A DNA stretch of 64,000 nt, taken from assembly GCA_001782805.1 (NCBI GenBank), contig MFPT01000003.1, forward strand, positions 44,072-108,071, given 5' to 3'. The notes beneath the pieces are model-generated. The model ran no database searches, was not told the DNA's origin, and worked only from the letters and a program-made list of their open reading frames with translations. Position 1 is the stretch's first letter; each line of letters begins with the position of its first letter. The position numbers and the translations under genes are program-made. This document shows positions 4,991 through 59,636 of this stretch, one piece after another. Source of the DNA: Candidatus Magasanikbacteria bacterium RIFCSPHIGHO2_01_FULL_41_23 (GTDB lineage: Bacteria; Patescibacteriota; Patescibacteriia; Magasanikbacterales; UBA922).

Positions 4991-5692
4991 TTATTTCTCC
5001 CCATCCAGCATCACGCGTAAGAAAAATAAAGTTTCTGATTTCAGTTTTGCTTTGGCCCAGATTTTTTGTTTTTCAGTGAGGAGTTCGCCCAGTCCGTCCA
5101 GAATTTTACGGTCGTTTAATTTTTCCAGATTCGCAATCAGTTTTTCCAATAATTCACGATAGGGCATATTAACGCGATTTTCCACAAGACCTTTATTGAT
5201 TGGCCAATTGTTTTGTTCAAAAAAATATACATCGAAAATATCGCGGTTGGTTTTGCCTAGTCTCTCGTACATCGCCATCAATTTATTGGCGAACATATCC
5301 GGTTGATCCATCACCAGCATCGAAATTCCCAAGTATGATTTAAGGGAATATTTTGAGCCGAAATTTCGTCGGTTGATTTCTATCTTTACATTTTGTGCGT
5401 TTTTTAATTTTTTACTATACGCCAAAATAAACAATAGATTAAATCTTTTTATATGAGCTTCTTTTATTACGCCGTATTTTACTATTATATTTTTAATTTG
5501 GTCAAAAATATACTCTTCTTTTGTCGCATCCAACAAATCAAAATCCAGATCAACGGAAAAACGATCCAAGCCATAAAATAAATATGCGGCCGTGCCGCCT
5601 TTGAAACCCAAAAATGGCGCAATGGATTTGTCGGCATAGATATCTTTCAGAATTTGCAATAAGATTTTTTTGTGCGTAGCCGGATTTAACAT
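4991..5692 (-). CDS. abiEii: AbiEii/AbiGii-family nucleotidyltransferase toxin (type IV toxin-antitoxin system)
   Basis: The nucleotidyltransferase motif 'GFKGGTAAYL...DLDFDL' (GG[ST]...DxD). The gene is 233 aa and sits directly downstream of the AbiEi-like gene on the same strand. Confidence 0.7.
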   Translation of the reverse strand: MLNPATHKKILLQILKDIYADKSIAPFLGFKGGTAAYLFYGLDRFSVDLDFDLLDATKEEYIFDQIKNIIVKYGVIKEAHIKRFNLLFILAYSKKLKNAQNVKIEINRRNFGSKYSLKSYLGISMLVMDQPDMFANKLMAMYERLGKTNRDIFDVYFFEQNNWPINKGLVENRVNMPYRELLEKLIANLEKLNDRKILDGLGELLTEKQKIWAKAKLKSETLFFLRVMLDGEK

Positions 5693-5696
5693 ATAT

Positions 5697-6293
5697 TTAG
5701 TTTGTTTTCAAAAAATTTTTATAATATTGTTTTATTTTCCTCTCCATTTTTTTATTTTCGTAGATATGCACCATAGCAAAAACTTTTTCCCAGTTCAGTG
5801 ATGATAAATTGTCAAAATGATAATCCTTACTTCGATATACCGTGTCCAAGAAAGCCCGTTCAGGCGTGGCAATGGAATATTCGCGGCTTTGGTCAATACC
5901 CAATGGGTTGATGAGGGCATTTTTTTTTATGGTTTCAAAAGTATAGATTTGTCCGTCACACACAATTTCTCGTTTAACATACGAAGCCACAAAAATTTGA
6001 TTGTAATATTGGAATGTCATACCTGAAGCTGCTAGTACAGTTTCAAAACTTATATATGAAGGGCGGAGTATATTGGTGGCCAGTTCTTTTCTGTCATAAT
6101 TGGCGTCTTTGGCGTACAGACCGCGGCGTAGGCGGATCAACTTGCTTGTTTTAACATAATAATGCAATCGAACTTCGGTTGCTCCGATATTGGTGTCTTC
6201 CCACAATAAAAAAATATCAACTGTGGTAAAGACAGTCTTCTTTGATCGGAGTAGGATGTCCAAGAAGTCGCCTCGTTTTTTCGTTATATTCAT
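5697..6293 (-). CDS. abiEi: AbiEi-family antitoxin / transcriptional regulator
   Basis: 198 aa ORF whose stop lies 4 nt upstream of abiEii, with abiEii immediately downstream on the same strand. The size and position fit AbiEi. Confidence 0.55.
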   Translation of the reverse strand: MNITKKRGDFLDILLRSKKTVFTTVDIFLLWEDTNIGATEVRLHYYVKTSKLIRLRRGLYAKDANYDRKELATNILRPSYISFETVLAASGMTFQYYNQIFVASYVKREIVCDGQIYTFETIKKNALINPLGIDQSREYSIATPERAFLDTVYRSKDYHFDNLSSLNWEKVFAMVHIYENKKMERKIKQYYKNFLKTN

Positions 6294-6430: not shown

Positions 6431-8014
6431 ATGTCCACCAAAAAACAAATTTTTCCGATAACACCACTTGTTCTTATTATTCTTGATGGTTTTGGTTTGG
6501 CTGATCCCAAAATTTCGGGCAATGCGATTACTCCCAAAACTGCGCCGCATATTTTTTCCTATTTAAAAAAATATCCAAACGCGAAACTCAAAGCCAGTGG
6601 TCGCGATGTGGGATTATTTGCTAATCAAGAAGGGAATTCCGAAGCCGGACATTTTAATATTGGCGCGGGTAGAATCGTCAAGCAGGATTTAGTGCGAATT
6701 TCCGAAGCGATTAAAGACGGAACTTTTTACAAAAATGAAGCTTTTTTGCAGGCGATTCATTATGCGCATGAGCATAAAAGCACGTTGCATGTGATGGGAC
6801 TTTTGACCAATGGCCAGAGCGCGCACGCGCATCCGCAACATGTGTACGCGTTATTGGAATTATTGCGTCGGCATAAAGTGGAGCGCGTTGCCCTTCATTT
6901 ATTTACTGATGGACGTGATTCATCGCCGCATTCGGCCATAACGCATTTACGAAAATTGCGTAAATATTTGGCGCCGCATGAAAAAATAGCTAGTGTGATG
7001 GGTCGATTTTATGCCATGGATCGGAATAAAATTTGGAGTCGAACGGAAATCGCATATCGTGCTTTGGTTTTGGGAAAAGCTGAGCATACTGCCGCGAGCG
7101 CAGAAGAAGCCATTAGTGCAGGATACAATCGCGGCGAAACCGATGAGTACATTACGCCGACTATTATTGAAAAAGATGATAGGCCAATCGCGACGATTGG
7201 CGACCATGACGCGATTATTTTTTTTAACGCGCGGAGCGATCGGGCGCGACAGCTTACCAAAGCGTTTGTTCAGCCGCAATCTGAATTTAATGCAATAAAT
7301 TCAGGGGTGTTTAAGCGCACTCAATTCCCCAAAAATATTCGTTTTGTGGCGATGACTGATTTTGGTCCGGATTTGCCGAATATCTTGACCGCTTTTCCCA
7401 GTCCTGATGTGGTGCATAGTTTGGTGTCTGCGATTGATGAACGATATAAACAATTATATATTTCGGAAACGGAAAAGTACGCGCACATTACATATTTTAT
7501 AAATGGCGGTTATTCCACGGCAATTAACGGCGAGAAACGCGAACTGATTCCGTCGGGCGATACATATTCATATGCTGACAAGCCTGGTATGTGTTCGCGT
7601 GAAGTTACGAGTCGGATTCTTTCTCACTTAAAAAAACAAGAATACGATTTTATTGCGGTCAATTTTCCTAATGTTGATATGGTTGGTCACACCGGTGATT
7701 ATCCGGCAACGTGCCAAGCGGTAAAAATAATTGACGGTCATGTGGCGCAAATTGTAACCGCAGTTATGCGTCAACATGGTGCGGTTGTCATTACGGCGGA
7801 TCATGGCAACGCGGAAATGATGTATGATCCGGAAACAGGAGCAATGGATACGGAACATAGCACTAGTTTGGTTCCATTTATAATAATATCCGCGTCATTG
7901 CGTCATCATAAAATAATCAAATCCGGTCGTTTGGCCGATGTAGCGCCGACATTGTTGCGCTTGCTGGATATTCCTAAGCCAAAGGAAATGACGAGTAAAT
8001 CTCTGATAAGTTAG
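6431..8014 (+). CDS. gpmI: 2,3-bisphosphoglycerate-independent phosphoglycerate mutase (paralog 1)
   Basis: 527 aa with the iPGM motifs 'ILDGFGL', 'GNSEAGHFNIGAGR', 'DGRD' and 'ADHGNAE'. Confidence 0.85.
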   Translation: MSTKKQIFPITPLVLIILDGFGLADPKISGNAITPKTAPHIFSYLKKYPNAKLKASGRDVGLFANQEGNSEAGHFNIGAGRIVKQDLVRISEAIKDGTFYKNEAFLQAIHYAHEHKSTLHVMGLLTNGQSAHAHPQHVYALLELLRRHKVERVALHLFTDGRDSSPHSAITHLRKLRKYLAPHEKIASVMGRFYAMDRNKIWSRTEIAYRALVLGKAEHTAASAEEAISAGYNRGETDEYITPTIIEKDDRPIATIGDHDAIIFFNARSDRARQLTKAFVQPQSEFNAINSGVFKRTQFPKNIRFVAMTDFGPDLPNILTAFPSPDVVHSLVSAIDERYKQLYISETEKYAHITYFINGGYSTAINGEKRELIPSGDTYSYADKPGMCSREVTSRILSHLKKQEYDFIAVNFPNVDMVGHTGDYPATCQAVKIIDGHVAQIVTAVMRQHGAVVITADHGNAEMMYDPETGAMDTEHSTSLVPFIIISASLRHHKIIKSGRLADVAPTLLRLLDIPKPKEMTSKSLIS

Positions 8015-8050
8015 TGGATAAATGTTTATTTTTTATTATCGTTAAGAAAT

Positions 8051-9628
8051 ATGAATCGTCCAAAACCATTGGTTCTCGCAATTTTAGATGGTTGGGGAGT
8101 AGCGCCTGATACAGCAGGCAATGCCATTGTGCGCGCCAAAACTCCCAATTTTCAAAAGTTTATTCGGGAATATCCCACAATGACTTTATTCGCTTCGGGC
8201 AATGAGGTTGGTTTATCGTTTGGCGAAATGGGAAATTCCGAAGTTGGGCATTTGAATATTGGCGCGGGACGCGTGTATTATCAGACACTGCCGCGCTTAA
8301 ACAAAAGTATTGCCGATCATAGTTTTTTTGATAATAAAGCATTTCTGGAAGCGGCTGAACAAGTCAAGAAAAATAAATCCAATCTCCATTTAATCGGGCT
8401 CGTGGGTCCGGGCAATGTTCACGCCAGTCAAGATCATTTGGACGCACTTTTGAAATTTGCCAAACAGCAAAAAATTAAAAATGTATTTGTGCATGCTATT
8501 CTGGACGGACGCGATGCTACGTTTAACAGTGGTGTGGATTTTATTAAAAAATTGCAGGCGACGATGAAAGATATTGGTGTGGGTAAAATCGCCACATTGT
8601 CCGGCCGATATTTTGGAATGGATCGTGATAATCGCTGGGATAGAGTGGAAAAAGCCTATCGCGCAATTGTTAGTGGTATCGCGGATGTTTATGCCAAAGA
8701 TCCGATTAAAGCCATCAAAGAATCGTATGCCAAAGAAGTTTATGATGAGGAATTTGTGCCAACAGTCATTGGCGAAGAAGGCGAACCAATGGCAAAAATT
8801 TCCGACGATGATAGTGTAATATTTTTTAATTTTCGGCCGGATCGCGCACGCCAATTAACGCAAGCGTTTGTTTTGCCGACATTCACGAAATTTGAACGCG
8901 AGTATTTAAAAAAATTATGTTTTGTGACCATGACGGAATATGAAAAAGAATTGCCCGTAACAGTGGCGTTTCCGCCGAATGTTGTCGTCAATTGTTTGGC
9001 GCAAACCATCAGTGACGCGGGATTAAAACAATACCATATTGCGGAAACGGAAAAATACGCGCATATTACATTTTTTTTGAACGGCACGATTGAAGAGGCT
9101 TTTTCGCACGAAGATCGTAAAATTATTCCATCGCCAAAAGTCGCTTCGTATGATAAAGCGCCGGAAATGTCCGCGGCCGCGTTGACCAAAGATGTTGTTA
9201 AAATTATTGAGGGTGGCAAGTATGATGTTATAATGTTGAATTTGGCGAATCCCGATATGGTGGCGCATACTGGGGATACCAAAGCGACGATAAAAGGAGT
9301 GGAAATGGTGGATAAATGTTTGGGCGATATTGCGGCGCATACTTTGGCGCATCATGGCGTAATGCTAATTACCGCGGATCATGGTAATGCCGAGGAATTG
9401 GTGAATTTACAAACCAATGAACGCGATAAAGAACATAGTACGAATCCGGTTCCGTTTATTATTATTGGCGAAGAATATCACGGAAAAACCGGTCCGGCCG
9501 GCGATCCGCCCGATGGTGATTTGAGTTTGTTGCATCCGGTTGGCATGTTGGCCGATGTCGCGCCGACGGTTTTGAGTATTTTGGGGATTAAACAGCCAAA
9601 AGAAATGACGGGGCGGGCGTTGACATAA
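8051..9628 (+). CDS. gpmI: 2,3-bisphosphoglycerate-independent phosphoglycerate mutase (paralog 2)
   Basis: 525 aa with 'ILDGWGV', 'GNSEVGHLNIGAGR', 'DGRD' and 'ADHGNAE'. It is a tandem paralog of the preceding gene. Confidence 0.85.
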   Translation: MNRPKPLVLAILDGWGVAPDTAGNAIVRAKTPNFQKFIREYPTMTLFASGNEVGLSFGEMGNSEVGHLNIGAGRVYYQTLPRLNKSIADHSFFDNKAFLEAAEQVKKNKSNLHLIGLVGPGNVHASQDHLDALLKFAKQQKIKNVFVHAILDGRDATFNSGVDFIKKLQATMKDIGVGKIATLSGRYFGMDRDNRWDRVEKAYRAIVSGIADVYAKDPIKAIKESYAKEVYDEEFVPTVIGEEGEPMAKISDDDSVIFFNFRPDRARQLTQAFVLPTFTKFEREYLKKLCFVTMTEYEKELPVTVAFPPNVVVNCLAQTISDAGLKQYHIAETEKYAHITFFLNGTIEEAFSHEDRKIIPSPKVASYDKAPEMSAAALTKDVVKIIEGGKYDVIMLNLANPDMVAHTGDTKATIKGVEMVDKCLGDIAAHTLAHHGVMLITADHGNAEELVNLQTNERDKEHSTNPVPFIIIGEEYHGKTGPAGDPPDGDLSLLHPVGMLADVAPTVLSILGIKQPKEMTGRALT

Positions 9629-29608: not shown

Positions 29609-29671
29609 ACCGTACTTGCTGCGGTATTGGCTAGGGTACTAAAAATACGTGGAATTAAACCACGTATTTTT

Positions 29672-30200
29672 ATACTTCTACCATATAAGCCGAATTTTGT
29701 CCTTCGACTCGACCTTCGGTCTCGCTCAGGACAAGTCCCTGTATAATTAAGGATTTATCATGAGCGAGCGAAGCGAGTCGAATGATGATCATTTCTCTTG
29801 TCCCGATGTTACCATCGGGATCAAATAACGAGCTAACTTTTCGAATCCAGACAAGTCGGGAAACGCTGCTCTTTCTCCAGGTAGGGTTTGCCATGTTGTC
29901 ATGTTGCCATAACAGAAGTATGGTAGCTTTTGACTCGAGGACAAAAACATCCATACACTTTTCACGTTTCACCACGAAGTGGTGACCCTGAGTGAACGAA
30001 GTGAATCGAAGGGTATCCTTCGACCTCGCTCAGGATAATCACTTCGCGATTAGTATTGTCTCTGTGGCACTATCCCGTACGCCGCGTTACCGCGTCGCAG
30101 GTGGATGTTATCCATTACCTTTTCCAATTGAATGGGCGGAGTTCGGACTTTCCTAACCTCGACTTTACGTCGGAGCTCGATCATCTTGGTAGAAGCGAGG
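29672..30200 (-). ncRNA. rnpB: RNase P RNA (bacterial type, with insertions), not reflected in the ORF track
   Basis: The minus-strand P4 halves are 'AGGAAAGUCCGAACUCC' (30137-30153) and 'ACAAAAUUCGGCUUAUAUGG' (29681-29700). The P1 helix pairs 5' 'CUUCUACCA' (30189-30197) with 3' 'UGGUAGAAG' (29675-29683). A terminator hairpin with a U-run follows at 29641-29672. Confidence 0.7.
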
Positions 30201-40828: not shown

Positions 40829-40855
40829 TGCTTGCATCGAGCGAACGTAGTGAGT

Positions 40856-40884
40856 CCTTCGACTTCGCTCAGGATAAATCGAAG
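40856..40884. repeat. A copy of the TCCTTCGAC-N-CGCTCAGGATAA short dispersed repeat. Other copies are at 2724-2743, 29701-29741 and 30017-30038 (inside rnpB), and there are related palindromes at 60844-60890 and 61363-61399.
   Basis: A near-identical 22/23-nt match between 30017-30038 and 40856-40878. All copies share the TTCGAC...CGCTCAGG core. Confidence 0.55.
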
Positions 40885-41101
40885 TGTGGATAACTGGCTT
40901 GACCCATTTCAAAACCTGCGTTACAGTTATATAAGTATGTTGCAAACAGCAATACACAATTTAATTCTCATCATTAAGCGTTGTCTCTTTATTGTAGACA
41001 TGCCTTTTGCATTTGTATATGTGCGGGGTATCGGGGTGACATGCTTTGATGGTGAAAATTGTGGTTGCAGTGGCAACTGCTAACAACCAGAACAAAAGTA
41101 A

Positions 41102-41133
41102 ATCATCCCGACGTAGTCGGGATGATTTTTTTT
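41102..41133 (+). terminator. Strong rho-independent terminator; also one copy of the CCCGAC-N4-GTCGGG hairpin family
   Basis: A 10-bp stem 'atcatcccgac'/'gtcgggatgat' followed by T8. Confidence 0.6.
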
Positions 41134-41227
41134 GAGAATAGTTCTTTAAAAAATAGGCAACAGAGGAAAACACCAACCCATGTATTGATTAAGAAAAATT
41201 CTTGCTCGATACATCGGTTGGTGATGT

Positions 41228-41503
41228 GTGGGACCGAGGGGGTTCTGTGCAATGCTGACCATGTTGGGGTTAAATTCCCCTGTACGAGGTTCTTCGATGA
41301 GTAATTCTTCGATTTCTTCGGGGCAAGAGCTCCTGCTTCAACAGCCGACGACTCTCGCTCCGACGAGCATGACCGGTACGATGACTCCGCTGACGGGGGG
41401 GGACGACAAGACTGGCCGACGCTTGCGTCGCAAGCCGTCTCGCGCCGACGTCGTCGCGCGTGAACTGTTCGAGGAGCGGAAGTGGGGAGAGCGCTCTTTC
41501 TAA
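41228..41503 (+). CDS. GC-rich (island 3) small ORF, hypothetical, 91 aa
   Basis: A local GC of ~58% with high GC3 in the distal half. No family recognised. Confidence 0.25.
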   Translation: MGPRGFCAMLTMLGLNSPVRGSSMSNSSISSGQELLLQQPTTLAPTSMTGTMTPLTGGDDKTGRRLRRKPSRADVVARELFEERKWGERSF

Positions 41504-41943
41504 GAGTTACTCCTTACGACTGTTCCGGGGTTGGCCACAGTTCCTCTGTTGCCTTCCCTCCATTAAACATTGCTGTGTTTAGCGGAGGGAATTTTCCACT
41601 TAATTTTAATTTGACACAAAAATTAAGTTATTTTATACTCAAAATAGATCCTGCCATACACACAGCAAATCTTATTCTACATATCATTGTCATGGGAAGC
41701 TTATATCGCTCTAGTCCGTGGACTAGGGTTGCGGCCACCCACCTATTTTATAGGGATAATGATTTTGCTGTTCTGGCCGGATCCAAAAGATCTCCCGACA
41801 CGTCGGGGATTTTTTGTTTATACTTAGCTGACCTGTGATGAGCTCCTCGACTCCACTCGGAGTAAACCCATTCGAACCAGTCGAAGGATTACTTGAAAAA
41901 TTAATAAATAAAGAGTACGATGCAATCGTATTTAATCTAATGA

Positions 41944-42016
41944 GGGCGCATAGCTCAGTGGTTAGAGCACGTCGCTTATAACGACGGGGTCGATGGTTCA
42001 AGTCCATCTGCGCCTA
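41944..42016 (+). tRNA. tRNA-Ile with anticodon UAU (AUA-reading)
   Basis: GGGCGCA-TA-GCTC-AGTGGTTA-GAGC-A-CGTCG-CTTATAA-CGACG-GGGTC-GATGG-TTCAAGT-CCATC-TGCGCCT-A. Anticodon loop positions 34-36 read TAT. Confidence 0.8.
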
Positions 42017-42038
42017 CTGAAATTTGAGAGTTTTTTAT

Positions 42039-42114
42039 CGGGCTGTAGCGCAGTTGGTAGCGCGTATGCATGGGGTGCATGAGGTCGCAGGTTCGAGTCC
42101 TGTCAGCCCGACCA
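42039..42114 (+). tRNA. tRNA-Pro (anticodon GGG), with CCA encoded
   Basis: CGGGCTG-TA-GCGC-AGTTGGTA-GCGC-G-TATGC-ATGGGGT-GCATG-AGGTC-GCAGG-TTCGAGT-CCTGT-CAGCCCG-A-CCA. Confidence 0.85.
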
Positions 42115-54267: not shown

Positions 54268-54905
54268 GGCCAAGCACTTAAATTCCCTACAAATTAGCTT
54301 GCTTTAAGTCCAGAAAAGGATGTAGTCCCGACAAAAGTCGGGATGTCGCCTCCGGCTCCAGATACTGAGGTAAAAAGAGTAACCTCCGCGGTTCTCTTTT
54401 TCATTATTAAGGGTTTGAGTTTGTCCATTACAATTTACACAACAATTGCAATCTGCAACAAATTGCAATTACGATAAGGTTCACATTATAAATGTGACAA
54501 GAAACAATAATCGTCTATCCAAAATCAAGATCAACTCCTTTCTGATTTATCAGAGAGGGTTACTCCAATAATCCTTCGGGATTTATTTGAGAGTTTGATC
54601 CTGGCTCAGGACGAATGTTGGCGGCGTGTATAAGGCATGCAAGTCGAGGGATCGATCGTAGCAATACGATACGGACCGGCAGACGGGAGAGTAACACATT
54701 GGTAACCTACCTCTAAGACGGGGATAGCCTTCCGAAAGGAAGATTAATACCCGATAGTAACGCGGGGACACAAGTCATTCGCGTTTAAAGATTTTTCGCT
54801 TAGAGCAGGGCCTATGGTCTATCAGCTAGTTGGTGAGGTAATGGCTCACCAAGGCGACGACGGATAGGGGACGTGAGAGCGTGATCCCCCTCACTGGGAC
54901 TGAGA

Positions 54906-54936
<31 letters not shown>

Positions 54937-55330
54937 AGGAATCTTCCGCAATGGACGAAAGTCTGACGGAGCGACGCCGCGTGCAGGATGAAGCCCTTTG
55001 GGGTGTAAACTGCTTTTATAGGGGACGAATTTGTGACGGTACCCTATGAATAAGAGGTTGCTAACTCTGTGCCAGCAGCAGCGGTAATACAGAGACCTCA
55101 AACATTGTCCGGATTCATTGGGCGTAAAGCGTCCGCAGGTTGCCATATAAGTTAGGGGTTAAATCTTCCGACCTAATCGGAAAACCGCTTCTAATACTGT
55201 ATGGCTCGAGGTTGGGAGAGGCATATGGAACTGCCGGTGTAGTAGTAAAATGCGTTGATATCGGCAGGAACACCAAAGGCGAAGGCAATATGCTGGAACA
55301 ACTCTGACACTCAGGGACGAAAGCGTGGGG

Positions 55331-55361
<31 letters not shown>

Positions 55362-55440
55362 CGCCCTAAACTATGTGTGCTAGGTATTGGGAGTATCGAC
55401 CCTCTCAGTGCCGTTTAAAAAAGCTAACGCGTTAAGCACA

Positions 55441-55482
<42 letters not shown>

Positions 55483-55946
55483 AGACGGGGACCCGCACAA
55501 GTGGAGGATCATGCGGTTTAATTCGATGGTACGCGACGAACCTTACCGGGGCTCAACTACTAGCTGCAAGCCTGATGAAAGTCGGGCCGCTTTTGAAGGT
55601 GCTAGATAGGTGCTGCATGGTTGCCGTCAGCTCGTGCCGTGAGGTGTACCCTTAAGTGGGGTAACGAGCGCAACCCTCGTTCTGTGTTAAATTTACACAG
55701 AGGACTGCCTGCGCAAGCAGGAGGAAGGTGAGGACGACGTCAAATCAGCATGGCTCTTACGTCCCGGGCTACACGCATGATACAATGGTTAGTACAGAGG
55801 GAAGCTAAGCCGCAAGGTGGAGCTAATCCCAGAAAGCTAATCTCAGTTCGGATTGTGGGCTGCAACTCGCCCACATGAAGCTGGATTCACTAGTAAACGC
55901 GCATCAGCCACGGCGCGTTGAATACGTTCTCGGGTCTTGTACTCAC

Positions 55947-56811
55947 AATAAAAGCGCTGGGCAGTTTAATAATCTAGAGAGTTAAAATCTCTCCCTCTAC
56001 AACGTCTGTAGAGCGTAGCCGAAAGATAGTCGTCTTCCGCGAGGGAGGCGGTGAAGGATCTGAAGGCAAATCACAGTCCAATCATAAAAAAACCGTATTG
56101 ACCTTTGAATCGGCGGTGAGCAAAGGGAAAATACACTTACACAGGTTTGATTGGAATGCGAGGAATAGAATATTAAATAACCCCAGGAGATCTTATGCCG
56201 TTTTGATTATTATGATAGTATAATCAAATAATGTAACTTACACGGCATAAGAAGTCAGCTGAATCGTAGTAGTGTCGACTAGTCGACATGAAGGATTCTC
56301 TCGAATCATATGGAAAAAATAAATCCAAATTATATCGTTGGTCTAACGGACGGGGAAGGAAGTTTTACAGCTTATGTAAAAAATCCGGATATGTCCAAAG
56401 AGGTCAAGCGAAGAACAAAAGTTGAGCCAAGGTTTTATATCAAACTCATTGAGAAAGATAAAAAAATTCTCTATGAATTGAAAAAATTCTTTGGCTGTGG
56501 CAATGTTTATTTTCAAAAAGATAAACGAGCCAATCATCAAGATTGTTATCGCTATGAAGTCGCCAATAGAAATGATTTGCAGAAAATAATTATTCCATTT
56601 TTCAAAAGTAACTCTTTGAGATTACGCTCAAAGAGCCGTGACTTTGAATTTTTTTGCCGGATTATGGAGATGGTCATGAGAAATGACCACCTGAAAGACA
56701 TAGGCCTCAGGAAAATCTTTAATCTCAAGCAAAAAATGCATTAGAGCTCGTCGTGTGCGGGAAATCCGCAGGCACGATGGGAACATCAATTCTAAGTTTC
56801 TAGAATATAAT
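55947..56811 (+). other. Intron inside the 16S gene (probably group I), encoding a LAGLIDADG homing endonuclease. Boundaries are approximate.
   Basis: The universally conserved 1390-1400 region is interrupted. The contained ORF has a LAGLIDADG motif. Confidence 0.6.
56310..56744 (+). CDS. LAGLIDADG-family homing endonuclease (intron-encoded)
   Basis: 'YIVGLTDGEGSF' is the LAGLIDADG motif. The gene is 144 aa and lies within the 16S intron. Confidence 0.8.
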   Translation: MEKINPNYIVGLTDGEGSFTAYVKNPDMSKEVKRRTKVEPRFYIKLIEKDKKILYELKKFFGCGNVYFQKDKRANHQDCYRYEVANRNDLQKIIIPFFKSNSLRLRSKSRDFEFFCRIMEMVMRNDHLKDIGLRKIFNLKQKMH

Positions 56812-57154
56812 CGCCCGTCACACCACGAAAGTTGGCAATGCCCAAAGGCTCCCGCAAGGGGGACGAAGGCAGGGTCAATGATCAGGGTGAAGTCGTAACA
56901 AGGCATCCCTAGCGGAAGCTGGGGATGGATCACCTCCTTTCTGGAGTTAATTCCGAGGAATCGGAATAATTTCAACTACAGATGATTATCTTCTTGTCAC
57001 ATTTATAGAGTGAACTTATCGCAAAAAAAATCCCTCGTTGGAAAAACCAAGGGATTTTTTTATTTACAAAAATAAAAATTTAAAAAATTTGACAAACACA
57101 AACGGGGGGGGGGTATTATTACTGGGAATTTAATTCAGTAATAATTAATTTTAT

Positions 57155-57781
57155 ATGGGTGAAGGAATTTCACGAGGAATACAGCCGGGTACAGCAGAGT
57201 ATGATGAGGTTAAGAGGAAATTAAATCAAGGAGGATTCCAGAAAGGTGCTGAGCGTGATGATAATGATGCTGCGGTATTTGTTGGAACCAGAGAAGAAGC
57301 GGCTATACATCGTCTTAGATTAGAATCAGAGGGAGCGCCATTTGCGGATTTGCGTTCGTATATCTCGGTAAATTCTTTTGTTGCGGCTGGGGCGGAAGAG
57401 ATAAGAGAAGCTTTTTCTTTGGATGGGAATAATAATTTATCTGAAAGTTTTGAAAAGTATCCGCCTGGTTTATTCAAGTTTATTCATAATAAGCCAGATT
57501 TTACTATTCTTTTTAAGTCTAAAGATGGTTCTTTGAAAGAATGCACAATAGATATGAAACGTATCAGTGATATGGGTGATCCTGCGGCATCAGCAGTGGC
57601 TACTGGCCATGCTACTGATAATCCATCTGATATTACTATACGTTCTTTGTCTAATATTGGTTTTACTTTTTTTAATAGTATTCCAGGTACAAATCTTAGT
57701 GGTTGTTATGAAATAGTTTTACAACAACGCGCAAAGAAATTAGCTGCTGAAAAATCATCAGGCGCAGGATTTGAGTTTTGA
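57155..57781 (+). CDS. Hypothetical protein (208 aa)
   Basis: Clean ORF with an upstream TTGACA-18-TATTAT promoter-like element and a downstream hairpin with a T-run (57811-57870). Confidence 0.45.
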   Translation: MGEGISRGIQPGTAEYDEVKRKLNQGGFQKGAERDDNDAAVFVGTREEAAIHRLRLESEGAPFADLRSYISVNSFVAAGAEEIREAFSLDGNNNLSESFEKYPPGLFKFIHNKPDFTILFKSKDGSLKECTIDMKRISDMGDPAASAVATGHATDNPSDITIRSLSNIGFTFFNSIPGTNLSGCYEIVLQQRAKKLAAEKSSGAGFEF

Positions 57782-57960
57782 GTTAATACGTATTCAGATT
57801 GAAACTTCCTCCTCGACTCTCCCCAGTGTTTATGCCGAGTCTGTCGAGGTGGAGTTTTTTGTATAAAATCCTTGACACGTTAATAAATTACAATCAACAA
57901 ATTTTTGATATACTAAAAATGCTAGGGATGCCATGATTCTTATTTTTGAATTGAATTTTT

Positions 57961-58803
57961 ATGAATGCAAATTTTTTGGATACAACAAAAGTTGCCCTGT
58001 TTAAAGGCAAACAAATTCGGAAGACCATATATAACAATGAGTGGTGGTTTTCGGTCGTGGACGTTTGCGCCATTCTCACCGAAAGCCCTGATCCGGGTGC
58101 TTACTGGAGAAAGTTTAAAGAAAGACTCATAGGAGAAGGAAGCGAAGTCGTGACATTTTGTCACGGGTTGAAATTGGAGGCTCCAGACGGCAAAATGCGA
58201 GAGACTGATTGTGCTGATGTTGAAGGTATTTTTCGTATCATTCAATCTGTCCCTTCTCCCAAAGCCGAGCCTTTCAAACGTTGGCTCGCCAAAGTCGGAT
58301 TTGAACGAATCCAGGAAATAGAAAATCCAGAGTTAGCTACTAAGCGAACGCGGGTACTTTACAAACTTAAAGGCTACAATGACGACTGGATTGAAAAACG
58401 AATGCGCGGAATCGTGATCCGTGAAGAATTAACGGACGAATGGAAAAAACGTGGTGCTGATGAACGCAGAGATTATGAAATTTTGACCGCGGAAATTTCC
58501 AAAGCAACTTTTGGCGTAACTCCGAGCGAATACAAAGAATTGAAAGGAATTGAACGAGAAAATTTGCGTGATCACATGGATGACTTTGAATTAATTTTCA
58601 ATATGCTCGGTGAGCGGGCAACGACCGAAATTCATCGGGTAGAAGATTCGCAGGGCGTACCAAAACTACAAACTGATGCGAAGGCTGGTGGAGATATTGC
58701 CGGTGGAGCAAGAAAGAATTTGGAAAAACGTCTAGGTCGATCCGTGGTTACAAACAAAAATTTTTTATCCAAGCCGGAAAGTGCAAAACGGATTGAGAAA
58801 TAA
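57961..58803 (+). CDS. Bro-N domain protein (DinD / prophage antirepressor-like)
   Basis: The N-terminus 'FKGKQIRKTIYNNEWWFSVVDVCAILTES...AYW' matches the Bro-N fold. Total length 280 aa, like DinD. Confidence 0.65.
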   Translation: MNANFLDTTKVALFKGKQIRKTIYNNEWWFSVVDVCAILTESPDPGAYWRKFKERLIGEGSEVVTFCHGLKLEAPDGKMRETDCADVEGIFRIIQSVPSPKAEPFKRWLAKVGFERIQEIENPELATKRTRVLYKLKGYNDDWIEKRMRGIVIREELTDEWKKRGADERRDYEILTAEISKATFGVTPSEYKELKGIERENLRDHMDDFELIFNMLGERATTEIHRVEDSQGVPKLQTDAKAGGDIAGGARKNLEKRLGRSVVTNKNFLSKPESAKRIEK

Positions 58804-58892
58804 TATATAAGAATGCCATTTTTTGCTTTATTATCCCCACCTTGACGATTGACTGAAAATTGTCGTAGTATACATCCACCAAGTATTTTTAT

Positions 58893-59435
58893 ATGAATGA
58901 AAATTTTGAACGTGTTCTCAATCTAGCGCAGAAAACCAATAGTCGGTTGATTGTTTTTGATCGTACAGCTGGCAAACATCTGGTAGTTATGGGGATTGAT
59001 GAATTTGAATCGTTGGTCACTGAGCCGGAAAAAAAGGAAAATATACCCAATGATAACGATGCTGACAAAGATCATGAATTGATCCAAAAATTAAATCAAG
59101 AAATTGCCGAATGGCGAAATAAAGCGCAAAAAAAAGAGGCGGAAAATGTTATTCATGATTTTAATGATTTGCCTGAAGAAATTTTAGAAGAACCAAAGTC
59201 AACTACGGAAAAAGAAGCGGTGGAAAAAGAAATATCAGAACCGCTTAATTCGCCAGCGGCATCGCTACTCCCTGCGGCATCATCGTCATGGCATAAATTT
59301 GGCGATGTCATGGCTCGTTATCAGCCCGCTCCCAAAATGCCGGAAATTCGATATGAGCCGGCCGAAACTCCACAAGCCGAGAAAACCGAATCTCTGGATG
59401 ATGAACCGATTTTTTTTGAAGAGCCAGTGGAGTAA
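58893..59435 (+). CDS. Hypothetical acidic protein (180 aa)
   Basis: Clean ORF rich in E/D/K. No recognisable family. Confidence 0.45.
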   Translation: MNENFERVLNLAQKTNSRLIVFDRTAGKHLVVMGIDEFESLVTEPEKKENIPNDNDADKDHELIQKLNQEIAEWRNKAQKKEAENVIHDFNDLPEEILEEPKSTTEKEAVEKEISEPLNSPAASLLPAASSSWHKFGDVMARYQPAPKMPEIRYEPAETPQAEKTESLDDEPIFFEEPVE

Positions 59436-59464
59436 ACTATCCCCAATTAAATAAACTTGTGCTC

Positions 59465-59493
59465 TTGACGGAAAAAAAGAGTTCCATTATAAT
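59465..59493 (+). promoter_or_regulatory. Strong sigma70-like promoter (TTGACG-17-TATAAT) upstream of tuf
   Basis: Near-consensus hexamers with a 17-nt spacer, ~145 nt upstream of the tuf start. Confidence 0.45.
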
Positions 59494-59636
59494 CAAGGAC
59501 GCTGTTAAGATAAAAAATATGTGGCTTATTTAAAGGTTTTTCACCTTTTTTAGTCTCTGATTATTTAATTAAAACAATATCGCTGGTTGACAAAACTTCA
59601 TCGGGTCACCTCGATGAGTGCGATAGGTATAATCGT

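Follow-up and report, generated by a model that had tools for sequence, protein, structure and literature searches.

[quoted passage not shown] The NCBI taxonomy places Candidatus Magasanikbacteria in the Parcubacteria group of the Patescibacteria group, that is, in the CPR. The G+C content of the window is 41%, and its short 16S gene and its RNase P RNA with large insertions fit a CPR genome. The tRNA-Ile(UAU) gene and the features around it are as follows:

41793-41815, + strand: terminator-like hairpin (41793-41808) plus T-run, from a consensus scan
41893-41921, + strand: promoter-like TTGAAA-17-TACGAT, a weak 9/12 match in a consensus scan that is not evidence of function
41944-42016, + strand: tRNA-Ile(UAU) gene, 73 nt, from ARAGORN and Rfam RF00005
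41970-41974 / 41982-41986, + strand: 5-bp anticodon stem, from the sequence
41975-41981, + strand: 7-nt anticodon loop CTTATAA, from the sequence
41977-41979, + strand: anticodon T-A-T, tRNA positions 34-36; sequence, ARAGORN position and Infernal alignment concordant
42039-42114, + strand: tRNA-Pro(GGG), from ARAGORN and Rfam (63.3 bits), 22 nt downstream of tRNA-Ile(UAU)

ARAGORN reports a tRNA-Ile with anticodon (tat) at 41944-42017(+), and the Rfam tRNA model RF00005 aligns over its full length (positions 1-71 of 71) to 41944-42016(+) with 72.2 bits (E = 7.9e-14), above its gathering score of 29. In this alignment the anticodon stem is CGUCG/CGACG, enclosing the loop C-U-U-A-U-A-A; the sequence itself gives the acceptor stem as GGGCGCA/UGCGCCU, the D stem as GCUC/GAGC, the variable loop as GGGUC, and the T stem as GAUGG/CCAUC. 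The acceptor stem is topped by a G1.U72 wobble (41944 / 42015), which recurs in 15 of 108 family members, including those of two other Magasanikbacteria loci (L066 and L071). A sequence-only reading of this DNA had described an elongator tRNA with a UAU anticodon and canonical arms that ends at 42016, and had held that a shifted anticodon stem would undo the assignment. Both programs agree with that description, and position 42016 is the discriminator base, A73; since they place the anticodon identically, the possibility of a shifted stem does not apply. The CCA end is not encoded and would probably be added after transcription; the neighboring tRNA-Pro and tRNA-Cys genes, unlike tRNA-Ile(UAU), do encode it. 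Single-sequence minimum free energy folding of the tRNA does not return a cloverleaf, as is common for unmodified tRNA sequences. We do not weigh this fold against the gene, because both the covariance model and the covariation across the family described below give the cloverleaf. On the opposite strand, the reverse complement of the gene (41944-42017, -) matches the Plastid-ycf2 5'UTR family (RF04354) weakly, at 42.3 bits against a gathering score of 65.7, presumably because that family overlaps the antisense of plastid trnI-CAU.

The sequence of the gene is identical across four independent assemblies of the population (L001-L004), so it is not an assembly error. All four have T at window position 41977: a T34 is thus genomically encoded, as in decoding of the Mycoplasma mobile type, in place of the C34 that defines tRNA-Ile2(CAU). 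A 204-aa protein adjoining the tRNA is found on 24 of the contigs read, comprising MFQH01000001.1 (GCA_001784325.1) and contigs from ENA and JGI aquifer metagenome assemblies.

With a spacing of 22 nt and no terminator-like site between them, tRNA-Ile(UAU) and tRNA-Pro(GGG) are probably co-transcribed as one small operon. Between the promoter-like site and the tRNA-Ile 5' end lie 22 nt, and the terminator-like hairpin would close the unit upstream, which apparently leaves the two tRNAs as a transcription unit by themselves. Many CPR loci have the UAU gene beside tRNA-Val(GAC) and the valyl-tRNA synthetase (ValRS) gene. Some 20 loci of 8-15 kb, from genomes and metagenomes, contain ValRS together with tRNA-Ile(UAU) (L008, L022, L042, L051, L070, L091, L112, L140, L148, L152, L167, and L195 among them), and of 63 TAT loci from metagenomes, among the matches listed, 25 also have tRNA-Val(GAC). 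The window does not have this arrangement; its ValRS lies 28 kb from tRNA-Ile(UAU).

Just upstream of the tRNA pair lies a candidate small RNA (41611-41815(+)). It has a near-consensus promoter (TTGACA-17-TATACT, 41611-41639, 11/12) and ends at the terminator-like hairpin at 41793-41808; for the 170 nt between the two, the predicted structure is a long closed rod (-63.7 kcal/mol, z = -6.1 versus shuffles), and there is a weak, subthreshold match to 6S RNA (20.6 bits, E = 0.18). The 1.1 kb at 40829-41940 contain no gene called in the NCBI MAG and no Pfam match. We considered this stretch as a decayed tilS and rejected that reading, its ORFs being without a Pfam match and the candidate small RNA lying there instead.

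Several further features of the window and its borders merit description. The 16S rRNA gene (1416 nt, full model) lies in the region 54583-59600 with no 23S gene in the 8 kb beyond its 3' side. What comes next is an ORF for a LAGLIDADG endonuclease (56310-56744), then two unknown ORFs, a Bro-N ORF (57961-58803), and tuf, and the region looks like an unlinked rRNA gene with an adjacent mobile-element-like insert. The class A RNase P RNA (29670-30196(-)) owes its length of 527 nt, where the model has 367 positions, to several large insertions; a complete RNA of this class would be expected to score above the 142.7 bits obtained. Within the row of glycolysis genes sit an AbiEii-family toxin gene and a small upstream partner (4991-6293(-)), after which come two tandem paralogues of cofactor-independent phosphoglycerate mutase (6431-9628(+)). 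The 10-kb flanks contain RF-1, L31, S2, EF-Ts, a ribosomal protein operon with SecY, and, just upstream of the window between tsf and gap (L125, 4310-9985), a 1891-aa protein with fn3 and Big_13 domains, which is a giant surface-type protein as often found in CPR genomes; we saw nothing in these flanks relevant to AUA decoding.

Isoleucine identity and the meaning of AUA

The bacterial isoleucine identity set reportedly defined by Nureki et al. in 1994 consists of the N-A-U anticodon (A35 and U36), A37, A38, A73, C4:G69, U12:A23, and C29:G41. The loop of the window gene supplies A35, U36, A37, and A38, and A73, C4:G69, and U12:A23 are all three present. Its 29:41 pair is U:A in place of C:G; as C29:G41 is an element specific to E. 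coli, its absence weighs little. For a view of the family we used 108 distinct TAT sequences from the matches listed in the species scan described below. In this set the 29:41 pair is G:C in 59 sequences, A:U in 33, U:A in 9, and C:G in 7. A73, which lies outside the search pattern, is present in 108/108, and C4:G69 in 81/108; U12:A23 is fixed by the search pattern. Canonical pairing holds in 98.9% of stem cells, and every stem pair outside the search pattern shows several pair types, for instance C:G (50), G:C (27), and A:U (18) at 5:68, and A:U (51), G:C (27), U:A (15), and C:G (15) at 50:64. The TAT family thus bears the hallmarks of a selected tRNA with isoleucine identity elements, and this strong covariation, together with the four identical assemblies, puts the gene far beyond chance.

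These observations bear on the possibility that the gene is an accident or artefact, that is, a copy of tRNA-Ile1(GAU) or tRNA-Ile2(CAU) whose anticodon was altered by mutation or sequencing error, or a pseudogene. Events of this kind do occur. In a Flavobacterium MAG (L114), a tRNA-Ile(tat) gene equals the tRNA-Ile(gat) gene of the same contig (3276-3349) except at position 34; going by this near identity, the tat gene is a copy of Ile1 whose anticodon mutated recently, and it has no relation to the CPR family. The suppressors of a tilS deletion in Bacillus subtilis arose in the same way (PMC3919564). Against such an origin stand the identity of the window gene across four independent assemblies, the occurrence of the TAT family, its stems showing compensatory changes, in more than 100 species, and the presence of AUA in essential genes, and we regard it as very improbable.

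The sequence-only reading had proposed AUA usage as a check, and the codon proves to be in use: it makes up 235 of the 1312 isoleucine codons (12.9 per 1000 codons) in the 53 non-overlapping ORFs of the window and occurs 19 times (6.1 per 1000) in ten genes for translation and glycolysis. AUA is hence a minor but real codon here. Its meaning was approached through a codon alignment of the window ValRS with seven orthologues from related loci (n=8), in which AUA-to-AUA matches were left out of the counts to avoid circularity. Where one sequence has AUA, the orthologue has ATT or ATC in 41% of cases and ATG in 4%. The corresponding values are 46-47% and 3% for ATT or ATC columns, and 8% and 47% for ATG columns. 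The AUA columns thus behave like AUU/AUC columns and not like AUG columns, and, judging from these ValRS alignments, AUA means isoleucine in the source organism, as had been expected of a tRNA-Ile(UAU). This leaves next to no room for an altered meaning, in which the tRNA would be charged with another amino acid, such as methionine as in many mitochondria, and AUA would be recoded. What speaks for that reading is a general organelle precedent; besides the ValRS columns, A73, C4:G69, and U12:A23 all fit isoleucine identity, and it is the least credible of the explanations considered here.

Distribution of the UAU gene and of the lysidine system

The sequence-only reading had called a genomically encoded UAU anticodon rare and known from a few reduced genomes. 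This is how the literature has it: tRNA-Ile(UAU) is recorded in 17 bacterial genomes in the tRNAscan-SE 2.0 paper (PMC8450103) and in 19 bacterial species in tRNADB-CE (PMC4013482), a survey of 167 archaeal genomes found UAU in two of them, and reviews describe this anticodon as lost in prokaryotes. The description does not hold for the CPR. Scanning one genome per species across 185,579 species with the pattern AGCTCAG-N(1-3)-GGTTAGAGC-N6-CTTATAA recovered at least 120 loci, and 112 of the 120 listed are tRNA-Ile(tat) by ARAGORN. Grouped by record title, which is unreliable for part of the loci, the matches listed divide as follows:

CPR: 61 loci
Archaea, mostly DPANN: 12 loci
Ignavibacteria: 8 loci
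Other named groups: 9 loci
No taxon in title: 16 loci
"Uncultured Gammaproteobacteria": 14 loci

The CPR loci listed range across the main classes of the CPR and come from Saccharibacteria, Microgenomates (Woesebacteria and Shapirobacteria), Dojkabacteria, Parcubacteria/Paceibacteria, Peregrinibacteria and Peribacteria, as well as Magasanik-, Uhr-, Kuenen-, Falkow-, Komeili-, Buchanan-, and Moranbacteria. Some of the loci titled "MAG TPA_asm: uncultured Gammaproteobacteria" (e.g., L012, L014, and L025) look like mislabelled CPR: the tRNA-Ile(UAU) genes of the loci so titled are nearly identical to CPR ones, the initiator tRNA of L014 is the same as that in a Patescibacteria locus, and the ValRS fragment of L025 scores 299 bits against the Magasanikbacteria ValRS. 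A scan of metagenome contigs for the common body (D arm, variable loop, and T arm) with a Y at position 34 gave at least 120 matches, among which 66 of those listed have TAT and 54 CAT. In environmental DNA, among the matches listed, this body thus occurs with UAU roughly as often as with the CAU of classical Ile2. With at least 61 of the loci listed falling in the CPR, tRNA-Ile(UAU) is ordinary in this lineage and not an anomaly.

We looked for the lysidine system on several levels. A PP-loop motif scan and HMM searches found no TilS or PP-loop protein in the window or its 10-kb flanks (~84 kb), and NCBIfam and Pfam searches of the unannotated ORFs found no tilS. A three-sequence TilS HMM found no TilS among the ORFs of all fetched sequence (at least 1.06 Mb), of which ~0.7 Mb is CPR DNA, where less than one tilS match would be expected at random, an amount too small to prove absence. 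Against a large protein database, a profile built from the TilS of E. coli, Geobacillus, and Aquifex retrieved only relatives of its seeds among the matches listed; CPR TilS lies beyond the reach of such a profile without a CPR seed. None of the four tRNAs that ARAGORN finds in the window has a CAT anticodon, and those CAT tRNAs that neighbor the TAT gene in related CPR loci resemble initiator or elongator tRNA-Met and not tRNA-Ile2. A search with E. coli IleRS across all fetched ORFs returned only its ValRS, LeuRS, and MetRS paralogues and no IleRS; the large class I synthetase of the window is ValRS. Near tRNA-Ile(UAU) itself we saw no candidate for a U34-modifying enzyme.

A broader view is afforded by Supplementary Data 1 of Meheust 2019 (PMC6744442), which counts the genomes carrying each protein family among 2321 CPR and 1198 non-CPR bacterial genomes and includes Magasanikbacteria. 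In these data TilS (K04075, PF01171) is depleted in the CPR, being present in 123/2321 CPR as against 866/1198 non-CPR genomes, as are MnmG (K03495; 5/2321 versus 897/1198) and TadA (K11991; 158/2321 versus 873/1198). In contrast, TsaD (K01409; 1942/2321 versus 995/1198), MnmA (K00566; 1495/2321 versus 948/1198), and, as a comparison family, EF-Ts (1983/2321 versus 1046/1198) are equally distributed. The main text of that study does not mention TilS (PMC6744442). Loss of TilS would accordingly be a property of the CPR at the level of the group, ~5% of CPR genomes carrying the enzyme.

These counts also bear on a redundant decoder, in which the source genome would have tilS and tRNA-Ile2(CAU) as well, and AUA would be read by both the lysidine-bearing (LAU) and the UAU tRNA. 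Such a state would be the intermediate stage in the scenario of Taniguchi et al. (PMC3575796), who note that some bacteria have both systems. It would be in keeping with the 123 CPR genomes that carry TilS and with the extent of the source genome read here, ~84 kb, a minor part of the whole. On the other hand, TilS is missing from ~95% of CPR genomes in a dataset in which EF-Ts is found in 1983 of them (PMC6744442), the window, its flanks, and the other fetched sequence hold no TilS-like ORF, and the CAT tRNAs near the TAT gene in CPR-like loci look like initiator or elongator tRNA-Met. On balance we consider a redundant decoder unlikely. The existence of bacteria with both systems also qualifies the earlier proposal that an encoded UAU implies either a genome lacking tilS or a distinct modification of the wobble U, which is plausible as an expectation and too strong as a strict implication. 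The group-level counts of TilS and MnmG in the CPR give this expectation strong, if indirect, backing.

Decoding of AUA and its bearing on the CPR

We consider it quite probable that the gene described here is a functional, single-copy tRNA-Ile(UAU) that serves this CPR member of the Magasanikbacteria as a dedicated, TilS-independent decoder of AUA, of the kind found in M. mobile. Under this proposal U34 would pair directly with the A of AUA, so that decoding would proceed without lysidine and neither TilS nor tRNA-Ile2(CAU) would be needed. Because the CPR largely lack both TilS and the MnmE/MnmG pathway, and MnmG is required for xm5U34, U34 would most likely be unmodified, or at least not xm5-modified. 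The retention of TsaD in the CPR suggests that A37 is probably t6A. Two assumptions complete the proposal: the IleRS of the source organism would have to accept U34, and either the ribosome or the kinetics of decoding would have to keep misreading of AUG low, as has been demonstrated in M. mobile.

An unmodified U34 is expected to wobble onto AUG and thus to read G too, which counts against the explanation we prefer and in favor of an alternative in which the tRNA has the same role with another chemistry, its U34 being modified, so as to block AUG, by an enzyme that has so far had no connection with this tRNA. The chemistry might then be pseudouridine, as in eukaryotes, or a new 5-substituent of the kind seen in a haloarchaeal mutant; we hold the modification, and likewise either of these candidates for it, to be possible on a tentative footing. 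Precedents exist in the eukaryotic tRNA-Ile(UAU), which has pseudouridine at positions 34 and 36 (PMC8007984, PMC6000648), and in a haloarchaeal mutant tRNA-Ile(UAU) with 5-cyanomethyl-U (PMC3895270). Conversely, the CPR lack the pathway by which bacteria commonly modify U34, with MnmG in 5/2321 genomes (PMC6744442), the surroundings of the gene showed no candidate enzyme, and the sole bacterial tRNA-Ile(UAU) to have been chemically analysed has an unmodified U34 (PMC3575796).

That tRNA is the one from M. mobile, where IleRS has Arg865 at the site of E. coli Trp905 and the ribosome rejects AUG (PMC3575796). Both cases have a bacterial, genomically encoded UAU reading AUA in a reduced genome with sparse anticodon modification. 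They differ in that M. mobile belongs to another phylum and an independent tRNA lineage, and in that its loss was a late event in a single species whereas the CPR tRNA is spread superphylum-wide. Loss of tilS has been shown for M. mobile itself and, in the present case, for the CPR taken together. The status of U34, the IleRS residue, and ribosomal discrimination are established in M. mobile, whereas the window gene is known from its sequence.

Other systems show comparable mixtures of likeness and difference. Bifidobacterium and Neorickettsia are likewise bacteria that encode UAU and have no tilS, but they have a eukaryote-type IleRS (PMC3575796), and reliance on an enzyme of this IleRS2 type has been proposed for them. 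In the archaea, Nanoarchaeum equitans and Korarchaeum cryptofilum resemble the CPR in decoding directly with UAU, in their small genomes, and in missing the C34-modifying enzyme; they belong to another domain, the system replaced is agmatidine/TiaS, and some of the genes have introns. The tRNA-Ile1(UAU) suppressor of the B. subtilis tilS deletion demonstrates that a bacterium can do without the lysidine system when a UAU tRNA takes its place (Kohrer et al. 2014, PMC3919564), but it is a laboratory G34-to-T mutation of Ile1, whereas the CPR family is old and diversified.

Closest in body is the canonical tRNA-Ile2(CAU)/TilS system itself, which serves the same codon with a tRNA of very similar D arm, variable loop, and T arm. 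The difference lies at position 34, where the window gene has T and not C, so that TilS has no substrate. The window tRNA is 80% identical to E. coli Ile2, 77% to Ile1, and 73% to Met, and 64-81% identical to the GAU genes of the compared loci. The median best identity to ~52-54 classical CAU genes is 85%, a value biased in that these genes were picked with a pattern derived from the window tRNA. The body resembles both Ile2(CAU) and Ile1(GAU), and these identities are not decisive on its origin.

TilS-independent decoding of AUA is already known, and we found no description of a CPR-wide pattern, nor any publication linking the CPR to tRNA-Ile(UAU) or to TilS loss, within the searchable literature. 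In reviews and surveys, only a handful of bacterial species have tRNA-Ile(UAU), and TilS is treated as essentially universal. In contrast, the dominance of CPR and DPANN among the matches listed in our scan and the presence of TilS in ~5% of CPR genomes suggest the abandonment of lysidine by an entire superphylum. We lean, with some reserve, toward the general view that across the CPR, and in parallel in many DPANN archaea, AUA is read by tRNA-Ile(UAU) with TilS, MnmG, and TadA absent, and that lysidine is not the bacterial default.

The window gene is thus what a CPR genome should carry, and the result corrects expectations more than it adds an exception. In practical terms, CAU tRNAs in CPR genomes should not be forced into the Ile2 class during annotation, and marker-gene sets that contain TilS are affected when the completeness of CPR genomes is judged. 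The finding also bears on how AUA and AUG stay apart without a modified C34. If the general view is true, a large share of bacterial diversity uses a decoding scheme that has been described for only about 20 oddities, and the CPR would constitute a natural system for studying how AUG goes unread by a U34 that may be bare. The question of whether UAU or lysidine decoding was the ancestral state would likewise be affected.
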